Shown here: positions 4,321 to 35,846 of the stretch, piece after piece
Layout: every line of letters starts with the position of its first letter
How positions within the stretch are numbered: the first letter of the stretch is position 1
Source: Prevotellaceae bacterium
Lineage (GTDB): Bacteria; Bacteroidota; Bacteroidia; Bacteroidales; UBA932
Length of the DNA stretch: 41,343 bases
Direction: 5' to 3'
Assembly (NCBI GenBank): GCA_031263185.1
Contig: JAISGH010000103.1
Coordinates: forward strand, 1 to 41,343
Notes under the pieces: generated by a model
Told to the model about the DNA's origin: nothing
The model's database searches: none
The model's input: the letters and a program-made list of their open reading frames with translations, nothing else
Program-made: the position numbers and the translations under genes

Positions 4321-7300
4321 TCAAATAAACGTTTCAGAAATTACAATATTTGGTTCGGTATTATCAATAGTCGATTCGGTCGAAACGGCTGTATAGTACT
4401 TGTCGTAGAGTTCATTTATCTGAATATCAATTTCATACTGTTTGTTTTTCATAATCTGCCTGTCGTTTTTAAGCTCGCGCGAAATGGTGCGGACTGTTTT
4501 TGCCAGCTGTGCGTAGATGCCCTGCTGAATATATTCACGAAGGCGCTTACAGCGACTGCGAATATCGTCATCTTCGGTTACCAGAGCATAACTTTGCAGA
4601 AACCGCTGCGCTTCGGCAGTGCCGCGGTCGTGCGATAATTCGTTCAAACTGCCGGTATCCTGCTGCGTAATACTTTCCATCTTAAATTTTTGCAAAGCAC
4701 GATTAACCTGTTCGTAATGAATCGATTCGGCATCTGCAAACGGCGCAGCCTGTTCCTCGCATTTTGCTTTCAAAATAAAAGCGGCTTCGAGGAAATCTAT
4801 CGGTTTTACTTCGCTTTGCGAAACGTTGTAATATTCTGTTTTTCTTGGCGATGAAACAAAAGCGATTGTTTCGTTGGATGCGTGGCGCACCGCGTCTGTA
4901 CATTTTCTTGCCACGCGGCTTTTCATCGGCAACGCCTTTATTTTTTTGTAAAGAGCACGGTCGGTATTGTACAGCTCCCGCACTTCGCGCAGCAGCTCCA
5001 ACTGTTTATCGACCTTGTCTTTGACTTTGGGGTTGAAAAGCTGAAATTCGCGAACAATTTCCTCCTTTGAATAAATCTGGGCATCTTCGCCCAAAGCCGA
5101 ATGAAATCCCTGCAACTTGATTAAAGCGTTGCGGTAGAGCTGAATTTGCGCATCGCCCTGCGCCGACGGATAAAACATATAATTATAGATTTCGCCTGCA
5201 ACCGAGCCGATACGGTTTACGCGCCCGATGCGCTGCATCAGTCGGGTTGCGTTCCAGGGCGAATCGTAGTTGACAATCACGTTTGCGCGGTGCAGATTGA
5301 CGCCTTCCGCCAGCACATCCGACGTGAGAAGAATATTGTATTTGTTGTCGAAATGTTCATAATTGGCGTCGAAGCAGCGGCGAATTGCGTCAAATTCGCG
5401 AGTGCGATTTACCGATGTAACTTCCAAAATATCGTGCCGCTGCAATTTTTCTATCAGATTTTTTTTCAGATAGTTGAGGGTATCTACGCTTTCCGAAAAA
5501 ACAACCACCTTTCCGGTTGGATTTTTTTGTTTGTCAAACAGCTCTGTTTTCAGTTTTTCGACGAACAAATCAAGCTTGGGGTCGTCGGTAATTTTGTCCC
5601 ACTGATTTTTCAGCTTAATCAGGCAATCGCGGTCGGCTTCAAGCATTGGCAGCAATTCTTCGGTAATTTCTGTTTCTTCTTCCGCTTCCGTATCTGCGAT
5701 TTTTTGTGGTTTGGCAGTAAAATCGTCGGGCGCAAAAACAATGTCCGCAGCGTCATAACCTTTTTCCACAGCGTATTCAATAATTCGGTCGAGTTCCCAA
5801 CCTTTTGCCTGCAAGTCTTTAATTTTCAATTCTGGCGCAACAATAATTTTGCCTTCTGCAAACATTTTAATCATATCGTTTGTAATACGCAAAAACGTAT
5901 CGAGCGATTTACGAAAGGCATCAAAGCTGCTTTCCAGACGTTTAACCATATGAACACGATATATTTCGGCAAGGTTTTTGCCGATATTGGCAGGATTTTT
6001 GAATTTCTTGCTGTGTTCCTCATTCAGAAACTCAACCGCACGGTATCGGGCATAGTGCAATTCGTTTGCCAGCACGTTTAATGTGCTGTAAAACAGCTCG
6101 TTAAGCTTGCCGTTTAATTTGTATGTCAAATCGTTGGGCGGTAATATGTCGGGGAATTTAATTTTTTGGTCGTCCAAATCGTGCTGATAATCCTCGTCGT
6201 TCATAATATTATGGCGGGTACGGCGAACGGTGATTTTATCGAGAGCCTGATTGCGGATTTCCTCATAAATGGCATCTATCTCGGCTGTGTCTGTCAAACG
6301 TTTGCGAGCTTTCATTATTTGGTTGTAGCGATCAATACGCGGCGCGAAAAATGCCTGTAAATTGCTTATTCCGGCTATGGTACAGCGTCGCGCATCCTGA
6401 AACAGCAGCATCAAATTGAGCAGGTCGTTCGGGCGATTATTCAAAGGGGTAGCCGAAAGCAGCATGATTTTTTTCCGTTCGCTTTTTATCAAACCGGCAT
6501 TATTGCGGGGCGACTTGCAAATCTGCTGCAATTCGTCGTATCGCGTAGTGCTGTCGCTGCGGAATCCGTGCGCCTCGTCAACAATTATCAGGTCAAATTC
6601 TTCTTTGGCCTTGTAATTGTTTTTGCCTTCAATCACTTTCGACAAGCTGCCATTGCTTACAAACTGCGCTTTTTTGCTGATTCCGAACCGCCGGAACGTA
6701 TCTTTCCAGTTGTCTTTCAATGCGGGCGGATAAACAACCAAAATATTGGTATTGCGTCCGTTTGCCTCTACAAATCGTTTTGCAATCATCGTTGCCACAA
6801 TAGTTTTACCCAAACCTACCACATCTGCAAGGAAAAAACCGTTGTGTTCGCAAAGCATCTGATAGCCCTGAATTACAGCATCGCTTTGATATTTCAGGTT
6901 GCGGATACCGTCGGGCAAAGCGGTAGAAAAATCATCTTCAATCTGGTCGCCGAAACTGTCAATCAACACCTTGATATACAATTCGTAAGGAGTGGGATAG
7001 ATGCCAATGTGGGTTTTAATTTTGCTTTTTTCAATATCATTTGCAGTAATCGGAATAGCTGTTTCCCACAGCTTATCAAATTCTTCCTTGCAGAAAGCCA
7101 CATCATCATAATCTTTCATAGCCACATTCAGCTCGTAACGTGGCGGTTCTGTCAGCCCCAATCCCGATTCCGAAATATTGGAAGACCCCATAATAACCCA
7201 GCCGTCGCTGTGCTGGGAATGAGTTTGCGGCAGGCAGAGGTAAAATTTGGCGTGTAAATTTTTTGTCGCATGAATTTTCATTTCCACTTTGCCTGTATGC

Positions 7301-28962: not shown

Positions 28963-29913
28963 ATGGCTAAACTACCTAATCTCATGAAAAAAACAAAGGA
29001 ACCGGAAACAAGGCTAAACCCTCTAAACGACTACCTGTTCATGAAGTACATGGGCGAGAAAGGCGATGAAGAGCAACTTATGGCCTTTCTAAATGTTGTG
29101 CTGCAAAAGACGAATAGAGATGGCATTAAATCGGTTAAAATAGCTGGTGACAGAACCCTGTCCGCTGACATTATAGGCGACAAATCCAGCATATTGGACG
29201 TGCTTGCCACCATGGGCGACGGTACGAAAGTCAACATTGAAGTGCAGCTCCGCAACGTTGGCGACATGGACAGGCGTAGCCTGTTTTACTGGAGCCGCGA
29301 GTACACCAAAGGTATTAAGTCCGGCGATGACTACAGCGACCTGCCAAACGTTATAGTCATCAATATTATTGATTTTCAGTTTATTGATGTTAACGCAGTG
29401 CATACAAGTTTTCATCTGTGGGAAGACCACCACAAGGACTGCCTGCTTACGGACGCGCTGGAGGTACACTTCATTGACATGGTCAGGTTCCGGCGGTTGC
29501 GCAAGAAAGATATTGTAGGCAACGGTCTGCACCGTTGGCTGACATTTTTTGATAAGAATACAAATAACCAAGTAGTTAAGGAGGTTGTCGACATGGATGC
29601 AGCCATAAAGAAAGCCCAGCAAAAAATTATGTTTGTTTCTCAAGACGAGGACACTTTTCGTACCTACCAGATGCGCGAGATGGCCTTATCCGATTTCACC
29701 AGCGGCATAAACAATGCTCACCGGAAAGGAATGGCCATTGGCGAGAAACGAGGTGAGAAACGAGGCATTGCCATTGGCAAACAGCAAGGAAAACAGCAGG
29801 AAAAAATAAGGTTTGTTTTGAAGTTGTCCCAAGAAGGCACACCTGTTGCTGCGATTGCAAGACTCGCAGAGTTATCCGTTAAAGACGTAAAGCAAATTCT
29901 CAAAACTTCCTGA
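28963..29913 (+). CDS. Rpn-family (YhgA-like, PD-(D/E)XK) recombination-promoting nuclease / putative transposase.
   Basis: LNPLNDYLFMKYMG...ILDVLATMGDGTKVNIEVQLRN...RSLFYWSREY is the characteristic PDDEXK_2/Rpn core. The C-terminal part carries GIAIGEKRGEKRG-type repeats. The start is uncertain: ATG at 28963 or 28984, and the track start at 28957 is a TTG. A TATATTTG box lies at 28952-28959. Confidence 0.85.
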   Translation: MAKLPNLMKKTKEPETRLNPLNDYLFMKYMGEKGDEEQLMAFLNVVLQKTNRDGIKSVKIAGDRTLSADIIGDKSSILDVLATMGDGTKVNIEVQLRNVGDMDRRSLFYWSREYTKGIKSGDDYSDLPNVIVINIIDFQFIDVNAVHTSFHLWEDHHKDCLLTDALEVHFIDMVRFRRLRKKDIVGNGLHRWLTFFDKNTNNQVVKEVVDMDAAIKKAQQKIMFVSQDEDTFRTYQMREMALSDFTSGINNAHRKGMAIGEKRGEKRGIAIGKQQGKQQEKIRFVLKLSQEGTPVAAIARLAELSVKDVKQILKTS

Positions 29914-30500
29914 TACTCGATCAAAAGTGAACCGTTTCCGGCGGTTGTGTAAGAAAGATATTGTAGGCAACTATCTACACCGTTGGCTGACATTTTTTTT
30001 GATAAAAATACAATAATTAAGGAATTAAGGAAATTATCGACATGGATAAAGAGATTATCGGCATTGATGCAGCCCTAAAGAAAGCCCAACAAAGAATCAC
30101 GTTTGTTGCTCAAGACGAGGAAACTCTTCGCGCCTACGAGAGGCGCGAGATGGCCTTATCCGATTTTGTCAGCGGCATGAACAATGCCCGCCGAAAAGGT
30201 ATTGCCATTGGCGAGAAACGAGGTGAGAAACGAGGCATTGCCATTAGCGAGCGGAAAGGCATTGCCATTGGCGAACAGCGAGGAAAGCAACAGAGAGAAA
30301 TAAGGTTTGTTTTGAAGTTGTCCCAAGAAGGCAAATCTGTTGCGGAGATTGCGGAGCTTGTAGAGCTATCCGTTAAAGACGTAAAGCAAATTCTCAAAAC
30401 TTCCTGATACTCGATCAAAAGTGAACCGTTTCCGGCGGTTACGCAAGAAAAATATTGTAGGCAACGGTCTACACTGTTGGCTGACATTTTTTGATAAGAA
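29488..30500 (+). repeat. Three tandem units of the 3' third of the Rpn gene: A 29488-29935, B 29936-30429, C 30430 to about 30500 (truncated).
   Basis: Each unit opens with ttccggcggtt(g/a)(c/t)g(c/t)aagaaa.atattgtaggcaac..tc..cac.gttggctgacatttttt. Units A and B end with the same ...gtaaagcaaattctcaaaacttcctgatactcgatcaaaagtgaaccgt. Confidence 0.9.
30042..30407 (+). CDS. Free-standing Rpn C-terminal-domain ORF (121 aa) inside repeat unit B. It may be an RpnS-like small protein or a pseudogene fragment.
   Basis: MDKEIIGIDAALKKAQQRITFVAQDEETLRAYERREMALSDF... is homologous to residues 213-318 of the full gene. It begins at the position homologous to the in-frame internal ATG of the full gene (29593). 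Upstream homology is out of frame or interrupted. Confidence 0.5.
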   Translation: MDKEIIGIDAALKKAQQRITFVAQDEETLRAYERREMALSDFVSGMNNARRKGIAIGEKRGEKRGIAISERKGIAIGEQRGKQQREIRFVLKLSQEGKSVAEIAELVELSVKDVKQILKTS

Positions 30501-30517
30501 TATTAAGTAAATAATAA

Positions 30518-31390
30518 ATGATATACGGCTTACTAAAAGGCAAGAAGGGTCTTATTTTTGGGGCGCTCAACGAAAAATCTATTGCATGGAAGGTGGCAGA
30601 GCGCGCCTGCGAGGAGGGAGCACAGGTTGCGCTTACCAATACGCCTGTTTCCATGCGGCTCGGTACCATCAACGAGCTGGCAAAAAAGCTCAACACTGTC
30701 GTTATTCCTGCCGACGCAACCAAGGTAGATGATTTGGAAAATCTGGTGCAAAAGAGCATGGAGCACCTCGGAGGGCAGCTTGACTTTGTGCTGCACTCCA
30801 TCGGCATGTCGCCAAACGTGCGCAAGGGGAAAACGTACGACGACCTCGACTACGCCTACCTCCAGCAAACGCTGGATATTTCTGCCATTTCGTTTCACAA
30901 AATGCTGCAAGTATGCCGCAAGGCCGACGCCATCAGCGATTGGGGGTCGGTGGTAGCGCTGTCGTACGTTGCAGCGCAGCGTACGCTGTACGGCTACAAC
31001 GATATGGCCGACGCCAAAGCCATGCTCGAATCCATTGCCCGCAGCTTTGGCTACATCTACGGGCGCGAAAAGAAAATCCGTATCAACACCATTTCGCAGT
31101 CGCCCACGCTAACCACCGCCGGCAGCGGCATTATGGGCTTCGACAACCTCGTGGACTTTGCCGACCGCATGTCGCCGCTCGGCAACGCCGACAGCACAGA
31201 CTGCGCCAACTACGTCATCACGCTATTCTCCGACCTCACCCGCAAGGTGACCATGCAAAACCTCTTTCACGACGGCGGATACTCAAGCATGGGTATGAGC
31301 TTCCGCGCCATGAAGGTGTACAACGAGGGGCTGGAGTACAGGGACGTTAAGGAGGATAAAACGAAGCATCCGAAAGCGGATACCAAGTAG
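30518..31390 (+). CDS. fabI: Enoyl-[acyl-carrier-protein] reductase (NADH).
   Basis: GLLKGKKGLIFGALNEKSIAWKVAE N-terminus. SDR fold with the S..Y...K-type region (ALSYVAAQRTLYGYNDMADAKAMLE). Total length is 290 aa. Confidence 0.9.
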   Translation: MIYGLLKGKKGLIFGALNEKSIAWKVAERACEEGAQVALTNTPVSMRLGTINELAKKLNTVVIPADATKVDDLENLVQKSMEHLGGQLDFVLHSIGMSPNVRKGKTYDDLDYAYLQQTLDISAISFHKMLQVCRKADAISDWGSVVALSYVAAQRTLYGYNDMADAKAMLESIARSFGYIYGREKKIRINTISQSPTLTTAGSGIMGFDNLVDFADRMSPLGNADSTDCANYVITLFSDLTRKVTMQNLFHDGGYSSMGMSFRAMKVYNEGLEYRDVKEDKTKHPKADTK

Positions 31391-33437: not shown

Positions 33438-34304
33438 ATGAAAGTAAGCGGATTTACTTTTGTACGTAATGCCGTAAAGTATGACTACCCCGTTGTGGAG
33501 GCTATTACCTCCATACTGCCCCTGTGCGACGAGTTCGTGGTGTGCTTAGGCAAATCTGACGACGAAACGGAGCTGCTGGTGCGGTCTATACCGTCGGACA
33601 AAATCAAAATCATCCACTCCGTGTGGGACAATAGCCTGCGCAAGGGCGGCAAAGTGCTGGCCGTAGAAACCGACAAAGCTTTTGACGCTATCTCACCCGA
33701 TAGCGATTGGGCATTCTACATCCAAGCGGATGAGGTAGTACACGAAAAGTACTTGCCCGCCATTCGGCAGGCTATGGAGCTGCACTTGAGCGACGCAGGA
33801 GTTGAGTGTCTGGTGCTAAAGTACCTGCACTTTTACGGCAGCTACAAGTATGTGGGGAACTCGCGCCAATGGTACCGCCGCGAAGTAAGAGTAATCCGCA
33901 ACGATAAAGGTATTCGCTCGTACAGAGATGCGCAAGGGTTTAGAAGGGAAGAAAAGAAGCTGAACGGGAAATTAGTGGACGCCTATGTTTACCACTATGG
34001 ATGGGTGCGCAACCCGTACTTGCTGACGACAAAAATAGCTGACTTTGATAAGCTCTTCCACGACAACGACGGCAAGCTTACGGTGAAGCAGGATGTGCAG
34101 TTTGATTATCAAAATGTAGCTTCGTTGGCGACCTTTGGCGATATGCACCCTCAAGTGATGCGGCAGCGCGTTGACAGCATGAACTGGCAATTTGAGTTTG
34201 ACACCTCAAAAAGGCGCCTCTCTTTTACCCACAGAGTGCTGGAGTGGGTAGAAAAGCGTACGGGAAAACGCTTCTTTGAGTTTAGGAACTATAGGCTAAT
34301 ATAG
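33438..34304 (+). CDS. Glycosyltransferase family 2-like protein.
   Basis: 288 aa. MKVSGFTFVRNAVKYDYPVVEAITSILPLCDEFVV...IQADEVVHE resembles the small GT2 proteins common in Bacteroidetes. Confidence 0.7.
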   Translation: MKVSGFTFVRNAVKYDYPVVEAITSILPLCDEFVVCLGKSDDETELLVRSIPSDKIKIIHSVWDNSLRKGGKVLAVETDKAFDAISPDSDWAFYIQADEVVHEKYLPAIRQAMELHLSDAGVECLVLKYLHFYGSYKYVGNSRQWYRREVRVIRNDKGIRSYRDAQGFRREEKKLNGKLVDAYVYHYGWVRNPYLLTTKIADFDKLFHDNDGKLTVKQDVQFDYQNVASLATFGDMHPQVMRQRVDSMNWQFEFDTSKRRLSFTHRVLEWVEKRTGKRFFEFRNYRLI

Positions 34305-34391
34305 GATGGGATGTTGCTGCATGCTTGAATTTAGGTGGTGTCCATGTTCTATTTGATATAGCTTTTATGCTGTGCGCGGGCTATTTTTATG

Positions 34392-34600
34392 CCTCCCCCG
34401 TTAGGTCAACGACCTGCGGGGACAGAGACACACCGCATCGTGTATCACTAACTACCTGAAAGGCAGGATTTTCATAACCGAAGGTCGTTGACCTGCGGGG
34501 ACAGGATAGCCCAATGATGATACAACGGCGACCGTAGGGGCGTATTGCATACGCCCTGTGATAATACCAACGGGGGGGCAACAGGGGCGTATGCAAAATA
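34392..34600. repeat. Cluster of GC-rich palindromic (REP-like) motifs.
   Basis: ggtcaacgacctgcggggacag (34404) and ggtcgttgacctgcggggacag (34484) share a core in opposite orientation. Palindrome ggggcgtattgcatacgcccc (34538) recurs in part at 34583. The flanking cccccgtt / aacggggg form an inverted pair. Confidence 0.6.
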
Positions 34601-34648
34601 ATTCATGCAAAAAAACACCAATTTTTTTGCAATTCAAAAATTAAGAGT

Positions 34649-34656
34649 TATCTTTG
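34649..34656 (+). promoter_or_regulatory. Candidate rplM promoter: -7 box TATCTTTG with a -33 TTTG at 34626-34629.
   Basis: Consensus TAnnTTTG with a TTTG 19 bp upstream, followed by CAG. It lies ~90 nt upstream of the rplM ATG. Confidence 0.55.
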
Positions 34657-34744
34657 CAGCCCTTAAAAGAGGGGGGGCGCATTGTAAGAAGGAATGCAGC
34701 TGCCTTAAATGGTAAATATTTATGGTATATTCGATAGGTTAACT

Positions 34745-35200
34745 ATGGATACTTTGAGCTACAAAACCGTATCGCAGAACAGCGCAACGGTGCAAAAAAA
34801 TTGGGTGCTGGTGGACGCTACCAACGAGGTGGTGGGACGCCTGGCGGCAACGGTAGCCTACGTGCTACGCGGCAAAAACAAGCCCGGCTTTACGCCACAC
34901 GTAGATTGCGGCGATAACGTAATCGTTATCAACGCCGAAAAAATTCGCTTCACCGGCGATAAAATGACCGACAAGCAGTACGTTCGCCATACCGGATACC
35001 CGGGAGGACAGCGCTTTATCACGCCTGCCGCGCTGCTCAAAAAAAAGCCGTTTGCTGTGGTAGAAAAAGCGGTAAAGGGCATGCTCCCCAAAACACGGCT
35101 GGGCGCAGAGCAGTTTCGGAACCTCCACGTGTATGCAGGCCCAAGCCATCCGCACGAAGCACAAAAGCCTACATTAATCAAAATAAGTGAAATCAGGTAA
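34745..35200 (+). CDS. rplM: 50S ribosomal protein L13.
   Basis: MDTLSYKT...KNWVLVDATNEVVGRLAATVAYVLRGKNKP.FTPHVDCGDNVIVINAEKI. The ATG at 34745 gives about 151 aa. Confidence 0.95.
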   Translation: MDTLSYKTVSQNSATVQKNWVLVDATNEVVGRLAATVAYVLRGKNKPGFTPHVDCGDNVIVINAEKIRFTGDKMTDKQYVRHTGYPGGQRFITPAALLKKKPFAVVEKAVKGMLPKTRLGAEQFRNLHVYAGPSHPHEAQKPTLIKISEIR

Positions 35201-35221
35201 ACAATTCGCACGCTAAAATAA

Positions 35222-35617
35222 ATGGCAACAACAGTTATAAACGCTATCGGAAGAAGAAAATCCGCAATTGCCCGCGCATACTTGAGCGTAGGAAGCGGGA
35301 AAATTACCATTAACAACCGCGAGCTGGCCGACTATTTTCCGTCGGGAATCTTGCAGTACGTGGTTACGCAGCCCTTGACGCTCACGGGCAACGAAGGCAA
35401 ATACGATATTAAGGTAAACCTCGACGGAGGCGGCGTAACAGGGCAGGCCGGAGCGCTAAGCTTGGCCATTGCCCGCGCCCTGTGCGAGGTAGATACGGAG
35501 GCGTTTCGTCCGGTGCTGAAAGCAAACGGGCTGCTCACCCGCGACTCCCGCAAGGTGGAGCGCAAAAAACCCGGACAGCCGGGCGCGCGCAAGCGCTTCC
35601 AGTTCAGCAAGCGTTAA
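35222..35617 (+). CDS. rpsI: 30S ribosomal protein S9.
   Basis: GRRKSAIARAYL..G.GKITIN...LTRDSRKVERKKPGQPGARKRFQFSKR. Confidence 0.97.
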   Translation: MATTVINAIGRRKSAIARAYLSVGSGKITINNRELADYFPSGILQYVVTQPLTLTGNEGKYDIKVNLDGGGVTGQAGALSLAIARALCEVDTEAFRPVLKANGLLTRDSRKVERKKPGQPGARKRFQFSKR

Positions 35618-35846
35618 CAGCGGCTGCTCTACAGCTTGCACTATTTATAAAGCACGGCTCAAATCTTTAAACAGGGCAGACTGGCTTATGGCCATCAGCT
35701 GTAATGGCAAATTTCCGGCCGCTACTGCGCTGTTGTTTGACCGCGATAAAACCTGCGAGACCAAGCTTGCCCTTGCTACTTGACAGGTTGACGGATGAGG
35801 TTTAAAAAACAATAGTAAAAAAACAATTTTAAACATAAACAAAAAA

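Follow-up and report, generated by a model that had tools for sequence, protein, structure and literature searches.

Does the reading frame left in a partial copy of an Rpn nuclease gene represent a second gene, or only the remains of a duplication? The question is raised by an rpn locus on the metagenomic contig JAISGH010000103.1 (assembly GCA_031263185.1, Prevotellaceae bacterium), the whole of which, 41,343 nucleotides, is the window analyzed here. A complete rpn gene is followed on the same strand by a diverged copy of its own 3' part, which contains an intact open reading frame (ORF) of 121 codons, and by a short stub of the same sequence that stops just ahead of fabI. From comparisons within the window and among related loci, we think it likely that the locus consists of an Rpn-type nuclease gene and a retained gene of the RpnSs type, which arose by local tandem duplication of the C-terminal part of the nuclease gene.

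The terms are those of a recent study in which rpn genes were found to encode a toxic endonuclease, RpnL, which cleaves DNA and induces SOS, together with RpnS, a small protein that is made from an internal start, consists of the variable C-terminal domain, and binds and blocks RpnL (Zhong et al. 2023, PNAS, PMC10400941). The domain shared by the two proteins carries, in a long helix, hypervariable four-residue repeats that combine one hydrophobic residue with charged residues or Gly, and one repeat added to S or L alone abolishes neutralization. The same study described RpnSs, separate small genes downstream of rpn, namely ypaA (rpnESs), which follows rpnE, and rpnCSs, found in some strains behind rpnC; these copies arose independently, by local duplication, from the upstream gene, differ from it by four-residue repeats, and are translated, tagged YpaA having been detected in E. 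coli. Its discussion raises the possibility that RpnL itself may start the recombination that makes the small genes. The original prediction for this stretch of DNA, which invoked toxicity of full-length Rpn, an internal-start RpnS and an antiphage role, agrees with that paper, where protection against some phages was found for one plasmid-encoded Rpn system.

The full-length gene in the window (28984-29913, forward strand, 309 amino acids; collection gene call P0024) has two other possible starts upstream, ATG 28963 and TTG 28957, but the true start is likely ATG 28984, which matches both the collection call and the N-terminus of the family. Its product matches NCBIfam TIGR01784 (recombination-promoting nuclease/putative transposase) over model positions 2-273 of 273 (E 5.4e-43, 147.8 bits against a cut-off of 52.1) and Pfam PF12784, PDDEXK_2 (E 3e-48). 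Against PF04754 (Transposase_31, YhgA-like) it gives no match at E up to 1, whereas E. coli RpnE matches that family at 1e-87; RpnE also scores 172 bits against TIGR01784, so that both Rpn branches come under the latter model. The gene had been predicted to encode a YhgA-like Rpn nuclease, of which the assignment to Rpn stands and the YhgA-like label gives way to PDDEXK_2. The PD-(D/E)XK-type catalytic residues D72, E86 and Q88 (..D..IEVQ.. motif) do not vary among 120 homologues, and the window protein has all three. An AlphaFold2 (AF2) model of the full-length protein (predicted local distance difference test, pLDDT, 87.8; predicted template modeling score, pTM, 0.81) has an alpha/beta core, modeled at high confidence, and a helical tail, the latter made of helix 206-220, a long helix 222-283 bearing the repeats, and two short helices. 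Foldseek searches of the PDB with this model returned only weak PD-(D/E)XK or restriction-type nuclease matches (E 0.016 or worse), none of them significant.

Within this gene, an in-frame ORF of 106 amino acids, the candidate RpnS equivalent, runs from Met204 to the stop (29593-29913, forward strand). M204 and D205 are each conserved in at least 90% of the 120 full-length homologues, and in the AF2 model Met204 marks the boundary between helices H195-204 and H206-220, that is, the domain boundary. Moreover, the free-standing copies found at other loci begin at the conserved Met or a few codons 5' of it. Judging from this conservation, the model and the free copies, the C-terminal domain can probably also be made alone, as an RpnS, by initiation at the internal Met.

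The tandem structure downstream is well defined. Repeat search, MAFFT alignment and blastn agree on a head-to-tail array on the forward strand, and confirm the coordinates that had been proposed for a repeat from 29488, a diverged 494-bp unit and a short third unit before fabI. Unit A (29488-29935, 448 nucleotides) comprises the last 426 nucleotides of the rpn ORF and 22 nucleotides past its stop codon. Unit B (29936-30429, 494 nucleotides) aligns with A over 495 columns at about 80% identity (blastn E 1.9e-133). The truncated unit C (30430-30502, 73 nucleotides) shares 95% of its bases with 29488-29560 and about 87% with the start of B, and ends 15 nucleotides ahead of the fabI start. Divergence between A and B is uneven, with identical runs of 29, 36 and 63 nucleotides, the longest being the 3' end of the ORF plus the 22-nucleotide tail. 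The A/B and B/C junctions have the same sequence (..GAACCGT/TTCCGGCGG.., the slash marking the junction). A hairpin, AACCG-TTTCCGG-CGGTT, spans the A/B junction (29930-29946), and an identical copy spans the B/C junction at 30424-30440; the hairpin may mark a hotspot of recombination, or may simply arise by coincidence from the sequence at the junction. As terminators these hairpins were discarded, the terminator-like matches being on the opposite (minus) strand and at chance level.

Unit B contains the candidate RpnSs equivalent (30042-30407, forward strand), an ORF of 121 codons that begins 128 nucleotides past the rpn stop on the same strand; it was predicted to be intact, is so, and was also called by the collection gene caller (P0001). 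Its product is 78% identical in amino acid sequence to the tail encoded by A, and at most 61% identical to any other copy. Relative to A it carries a 21-nucleotide insert right behind the ATG (30045-30065, DKEIIGI), a tandem duplication of the start region, and a 24-nucleotide insert at 30233-30256 (GIAISERK), which amounts to two four-residue repeats. As a result of the former, the start of B does not align with the internal ATG 29593 as was first thought: the true counterpart of that codon is now ATT (Ile8 of B), and the ATG of B sits in the upstream copy of the 21-nucleotide duplication. The repeat tract reads GMAI GEKR GEKR GIAI GKQQ GKQQ in A (six units, 29728-29799) and GIAI GEKR GEKR GIAI SERK GIAI GEQR GKQQ in B (eight units, 30198-30293). 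Repeat number varies in all relatives, and the closest outgroup, locus L001, has seven. Given counts of six, eight and seven, A likely lost two repeats rather than B gaining two, and GIAISERK is probably ancestral; the repeat described earlier as extra in B is therefore present, but is probably not a gain in B. A read-through or frameshift fusion of A to B was rejected, as B lies in a different frame and its leader contains stop codons.

As to its domain content, the 121-residue protein matches TIGR01784 over the end of the model that corresponds to the C-terminus, with a score below the cut-off (profile positions 191-273, E 1e-5). Its AF2 model (pLDDT 67) is all-helical, with a confident C-terminal bundle resembling a helix-turn-helix (HTH) and a repeat tract of low confidence, and a Pfam scan gives only sub-threshold HTH matches. 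When the family profile is compared with E. coli RpnE by hhalign, only the tail, repeats plus HTH, aligns (E 4e-4, probability 34%). A sequence search of the PDB returned no match. A fold shared by the tail and RpnS is therefore only putative.

Sequence divergence was used to judge whether unit B persists as a gene or decays. Comparing the A tail with the B ORF by the Nei-Gojobori method, the ratio of non-synonymous to synonymous substitutions per site (dN/dS) is 0.46-0.49 in two alignments (25-26 non-synonymous and 14 synonymous changes), with fewer non-synonymous than synonymous changes per site (Fisher p = 0.037). To polarize the divergence, the 23 amino acid differences between A and B were set against five outgroup tails (L001-L005): 11 are derived in A, 9 in B, and 3 could be assigned to neither. 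In the HTH region, B keeps the family consensus (KSVAEIAELVEL versus MSVAEVAELVAL in L001) where A has changed. The excess of B-derived changes expected of a decaying pseudogene beside a constrained parent is not seen. The indels point in the same direction: both inside the B ORF are in frame, and both in the 106-nucleotide leader ahead of it are frame-breaking.

Recurrence of the architecture elsewhere provides a separate line of evidence. All close relatives of the rpn protein belong to genome bins from termite guts (Prevotellaceae, Dysgonamonadaceae, Tannerella, Candidatus Symbiothrix, Margulisiibacteriota and Treponema), and identity reaches 77% in the best of them. We fetched 55 related loci and searched them by tblastn with the N-terminal (residues 1-205) and C-terminal (residues 206-309) halves of the protein; 23 of these loci have a complete gene and at least 350 nucleotides downstream. 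A survey for adjacent stand-alone C-terminal ORFs, which had been suggested as a check, found one or two free downstream tail copies in four of the 23 (L004, L012, L021 and L028), all of them intact. The uxaA/fabI neighborhood of the window is shared by none of the fetched loci. In L004, from Bacteroidales bin Kf353_bin88 (4989-6669), rpn is followed by ORFs of 125 and 110 amino acids with overlapping stop and start codons, which suggests an operon with coupled translation; the two free tails are 95% and 68% identical to the parent tail, respectively, and the three copies differ in repeat number. L012, from Prevotella, has rpn plus an ORF of 112 amino acids, and L021, from Margulisiibacteriota, rpn plus one of 96 amino acids. 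At L028, from Prevotellaceae bin Nc350_bin194 (42-1315), rpn is split just before the conserved internal Met, so that a nuclease-only N-terminal ORF of 197 amino acids, in another frame, precedes an S ORF of 117 amino acids that starts MDAAIKKAQ, followed in turn by a second copy of 100 amino acids. This locus is either a natural two-gene version of the system or a frameshifted pseudogene.

Each free copy is closest to its own upstream tail (61-95% amino acid identity) and at most 61% identical to all others, the figure of 61% to a non-parent being reached only between the window's small ORF and the first downstream copy of L004. Because each is closest to its own parent, the free copies are of independent origin. 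In all seven pairs dN/dS lies at 0.27-0.60, including old pairs with dS of 0.5-0.8, and fused and free copies have different repeat numbers at every one of these loci. The duplicated units begin 2-27 nucleotides upstream of the conserved Met in the four loci and 105 nucleotides upstream in the window; the duplications that persist are therefore those that include the whole S frame. Two further loci (L009 and L020) carry tandem full-length rpn genes. As in the tandem rpn arrays published earlier (Zhong et al., SI Fig. S1B), the duplication there is a direct tandem one, like that in the window, but the window duplicates only the C-terminal third of the gene and not the nuclease domain.

The closest known counterparts are rpnE-ypaA and rpnC-rpnCSs of E. 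coli, where the 3' part of rpn has likewise been tandemly duplicated directly downstream on the same strand. In MG1655, the duplicated unit of rpnE-ypaA begins 15 nucleotides upstream of the internal ATG of rpnE, and ypaA equals the RpnE tail plus one extra four-residue repeat (KLEG). In the window as in rpnE-ypaA, the unit starts 5' of the internal start, ends just past the stop codon and holds an intact small ORF, and, as for the E. coli RpnSs genes, the copy derives from its own upstream gene and differs by whole repeats, one more in ypaA and two in the window. The similarity extends to the RpnL/RpnS pairs as such (E. coli RpnA, RpnB and RpnP2, and C. difficile Rpn): the window protein is a TIGR01784 member with the D..ExQ motif intact and with a conserved internal Met, in frame, where its two domains meet, and is predicted to have a helical C-terminal domain in which a long helix with hypervariable four-residue repeats leads into an HTH-like bundle. 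Several features set it apart. Its nuclease belongs to PDDEXK_2 (PF12784) and those of E. coli to Transposase_31 (PF04754); its small proteins, at 121 and 106 residues, are twice as long as the 61-residue E. coli RpnSs; its duplicated unit has 105 nucleotides of former coding sequence as a leader, which rpnE-ypaA lacks; and a third, truncated unit lies next to fabI, a gene of essential type. The locus comes from a Bacteroidales bacterium of termite-gut type, in which Shine-Dalgarno-led initiation is not the rule. Separately encoded small proteins that match the Rpn C-terminal domain are also known as DUF4351 (PF14261; PMC10400941), relative to which the 121-residue ORF is a separate, locally derived lineage.

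With Q for the 73-nucleotide segment, R for the rest of the gene and J for the junction, the locus can be written P-Q-R-J-Q-R-J-Q-T. Since the two J sequences are identical, the junction was presumably made once. The simplest path would be a ground state P-Q-R-J-Q-T, followed by one unequal crossover between two Q copies; triplication followed by deletion is an alternative path to the same array. Through the same Q homology, B could also be lost. The B domain would become fused to the nuclease by crossing over within the S-coding part, in the identical 29- and 36-nucleotide tracts for instance, and exchange in Q or the B leader would put the fusion out of frame. C-terminal domain swapping at such loci, which the original prediction had raised, corresponds to the published observation of an N-terminal domain fused with an rpnSs region (PMC10400941).

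The most obvious rival explanation is that B and C are merely what is left of a tandem duplication, or of a triplication and deletion, in neutral decay, with the ORF still open because it is too young to have been interrupted. The pair is indeed young (dS about 0.23, 39 substitutions), so that an open frame of 121 codons is unsurprising; as coding sequence, unit C is clearly a non-functional stub and the B leader is degraded, and E. coli ypaA is itself flagged as a pseudogene in RefSeq. On the other hand, the B protein has not evolved faster than A (9 versus 11 derived changes) and retains consensus residues that A has lost, dN/dS is below 1 with indels in frame only within the ORF, and the start codon has survived the 21-nucleotide duplication. 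Four of 23 related loci also have intact ORFs, with dS up to 0.78 and dN/dS of 0.27-0.60, and in E. coli YpaA is translated (PMC10400941). On this sequence evidence we consider plain decay of unit B unlikely. The proposal that duplication has turned an intragenic antitoxin into a gene of its own is favored instead by the recurrent architecture, with intact ORFs under purifying selection, the symmetric divergence and the indels, and has a published precedent in RpnSs.

A further possibility, compatible with a retained RpnSs gene, is that B is mainly a silent cassette, whose C-terminal domain, with its different repeat number and HTH surface, homologous recombination would move into the nuclease gene to alter the specificity of the nuclease, translation of B itself being secondary. 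The mosaic divergence, in which identical tracts of 29, 36 and 63 nucleotides lie beside diverged segments, is what gene conversion or exchange leaves behind, and three 73-nucleotide Q copies with identical junctions imply that unequal recombination happened more than once. Owing to the +2 and -1 indels, however, the reading frame would be lost in any fusion made in Q or the B leader, so that only crossovers within the S-coding part would work; no sister contig shows a swapped state; and purifying selection on free copies with their own starts, at five loci, better fits a translated product. A role primarily as a silent reservoir thus seems improbable. More elaborate still, the small gene may be no spare antitoxin for its neighbor, since a difference of two repeats would be enough to break pairing in E. 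coli; the locus could then be a recombination-prone cassette array, in which the three Q repeats, with the same hairpin at each junction, would allow the cell to switch the dimerization/specificity domain fused to the nuclease, or could confer cross-immunity against other Rpn paralogues, the latter with reference to genomes that hold a dozen or more of these; we would give either version little credence. An extension of it that seems just as speculative is that Q carries an internal rpnS promoter, each duplication being a self-contained transcription unit, with stub C driving fabI. Finally, an assembler might have joined the C-terminal parts of different rpn paralogues: rpn genes are multi-copy in termite-gut bins and frequent at contig ends, and the window itself, one metagenomic contig, was encountered a single time. 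The longest identical tract, 63 nucleotides, is shorter than the k = 119 that the contig titles of related bins give and that is typical of such assemblies; a similar setting is presumed for the window contig. A and B are also each other's closest relatives (78% amino acid identity versus at most 61% to others), both junctions are identical and in register, and the architecture is met again in other assemblies, made independently, as well as in E. coli genomes that are finished, making an artefact very improbable.

Several observations weigh against a functional RpnSs gene at this locus and temper the preferred explanation. The dN/dS test within the window is weak, as it draws on 39 substitutions and the A lineage is constrained anyway, and at the divergence of A and B it would not be unlikely for 121 codons to stay open by chance. 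No close relative yielded an orthologous locus, the best relative being 77% identical; exact-sequence look-ups placed the 121- and 316-amino-acid products on no other contig, and a metagenome scan yielded only one locus, a distant one. In structure searches the 121-residue model gave weak HTH domains in the PDB and no significant match, and neither this model nor the full-length one had RpnA-S (PDB 7TH0), a dimer-forming helical bundle with a long first helix, among its 50 listed matches. The 121-residue ORF has no match to DUF4351 (PF14261) at E up to 1, and PADLOC has no match for the nuclease. The rpn locus is surrounded by housekeeping genes and lies in no defense island, which sets it apart from RpnL/RpnS systems. 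Shine-Dalgarno-led initiation is generally not used by Bacteroidota, and for that reason the sequence AAGGAGG, located 8 nucleotides 5' of ATG 29593, says little about initiation at Met204. Selective maintenance of the free copy is supported by dN/dS, the symmetry of 9 versus 11 derived changes, the in-frame indels and the four analogous loci, although this support is not decisive.

If the locus is indeed a nuclease gene with a retained RpnSs-type copy, toxicity, antitoxin action, binding and phage defense would be attributed to its proteins by analogy with their E. coli counterparts. Binding of the small proteins to the full-length nuclease, by way of the shared domain of long helix and repeats, would hold the nuclease inactive, and the number of four-residue repeats would set which partners pair. 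Since A and B differ by two repeats (six versus eight), B is, by the same analogy, more likely a partner of diverged specificity than simply an extra dose of antitoxin. A point on the other side is that B may have no action on its own neighbor, as a repeat mismatch abolishes neutralization in E. coli.

The window locus is a further example of the published RpnL/RpnS/RpnSs arrangement, from the PDDEXK_2 branch and from termite-gut-type Bacteroidales. RpnSs having been described already (PMC10400941), it opens no new kind of biology. If the interpretation is correct, the arrangement is not peculiar to the enterobacterial YhgA-like proteins, but recurs independently in the PDDEXK_2 branch, both in Bacteroidales and in termite-gut Margulisiibacteriota. 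This would strengthen the case that duplication of an antitoxin-like tail is a general evolutionary route for such systems, and that differences in repeat number between fused and free copies belong to their mode of action. It would also supply natural L/S/Ss triples for tests of repeat number and pairing, including the split gene of L028 and the three-copy locus L004.

The survey brought up further S-like ORFs and features of the family. At L057 (Dysgonamonadaceae, JAISNS010000123), an S-like ORF of 96 amino acids (1645-1935) has no rpn gene called beside it. At L059 (1913-2896), one of 131 amino acids follows a PDDEXK_2 fragment of 118 amino acids downstream of a complete rpn, and fragment and S-like ORF together look like a broken second copy. 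Several small S-like proteins that a protein search had offered as free genes were set aside as probable truncated rpn genes, given their position at the ends of contigs. The rpn genes of termite-gut bins are in fact very often found at contig ends, and thus break assemblies. The subfamily is highly multi-copy in Margulisiibacteriota bin Kf353_bin111 (L018-L050) and other termite-gut bins, with at least 14 loci in one bin. Close homologues in the same habitat cross phyla, occurring in Bacteroidota and Margulisiibacteriota and among proteins labeled Treponema, Spirochaetia and Clostridiales, which suggests horizontal spread. In RefSeq, MG1655 ypaA (L058 7817-8002) is labeled a pseudogene although the tagged protein has been detected (PMC10400941); automated annotation may discard stand-alone RpnSs genes elsewhere too.

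The gene order in the window is polA, a LacI-type regulator, uxaB, uxaA, rpn plus the small ORF, fabI, a GH51-type arabinofuranosidase, rpsB and tsf, and no second rpn copy was found elsewhere in it. An ORF of 288 amino acids at 33438-34304 has no Pfam match at E up to 1e-5, and the stretch of about 1.5 kb that follows it, ahead of rpsB (34305-35846), is without an ORF of at least 200 amino acids. The immediate downstream neighbor, outside the rpn system, is fabI (enoyl-ACP reductase; 30518-31390, forward strand; PF13561, E 4e-58).

The sequences in front of the small ORF and of fabI are both repeat-derived. The unit B leader (29936-30041, forward strand, 106 nucleotides) is homologous to A coding sequence (FRRLRKKDIVGNGLHRWLTFFDKN...), and with a +2 T and a -1 A indel and in-frame stops it is no longer coding. 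Six of the seven substitutions just 5' of the ATG of B are GC to AT, a bias compatible with a relaxation of coding constraint or with an initiation region rich in A and T. A sigma-70-like sequence, CTGACA-16-TACAAT (10 of 12 matches, 29987-30014), occurs in unit B only, where the +2 T insert has changed the spacer from 14 to 16 and TACAAA has become TACAAT; its relevance in Bacteroidota is doubtful, and a sigma-70-type scan of the region is overall at background level. A search of the region for the promoter motif of Bacteroidetes type, TTTG..TAnnTTTG, found none. The 110-nucleotide spacer between the stop codon of B and the fabI ATG (30408-30517) consists of the 22-nucleotide tail, the 73-nucleotide stub C and 15 further bases. 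It is thus repeat-derived except for its last 15 nucleotides, which leaves fabI without an upstream region of its own, and fabI must therefore be transcribed either through the rpn and small-ORF units or from the Q-derived stub. In the first case, we infer, B would be transcribed as well, and in the second the Q copies 5' of S and of the small ORF would become promoter candidates. Stub C and this repeat-derived fabI leader are the only unusual details of the locus.

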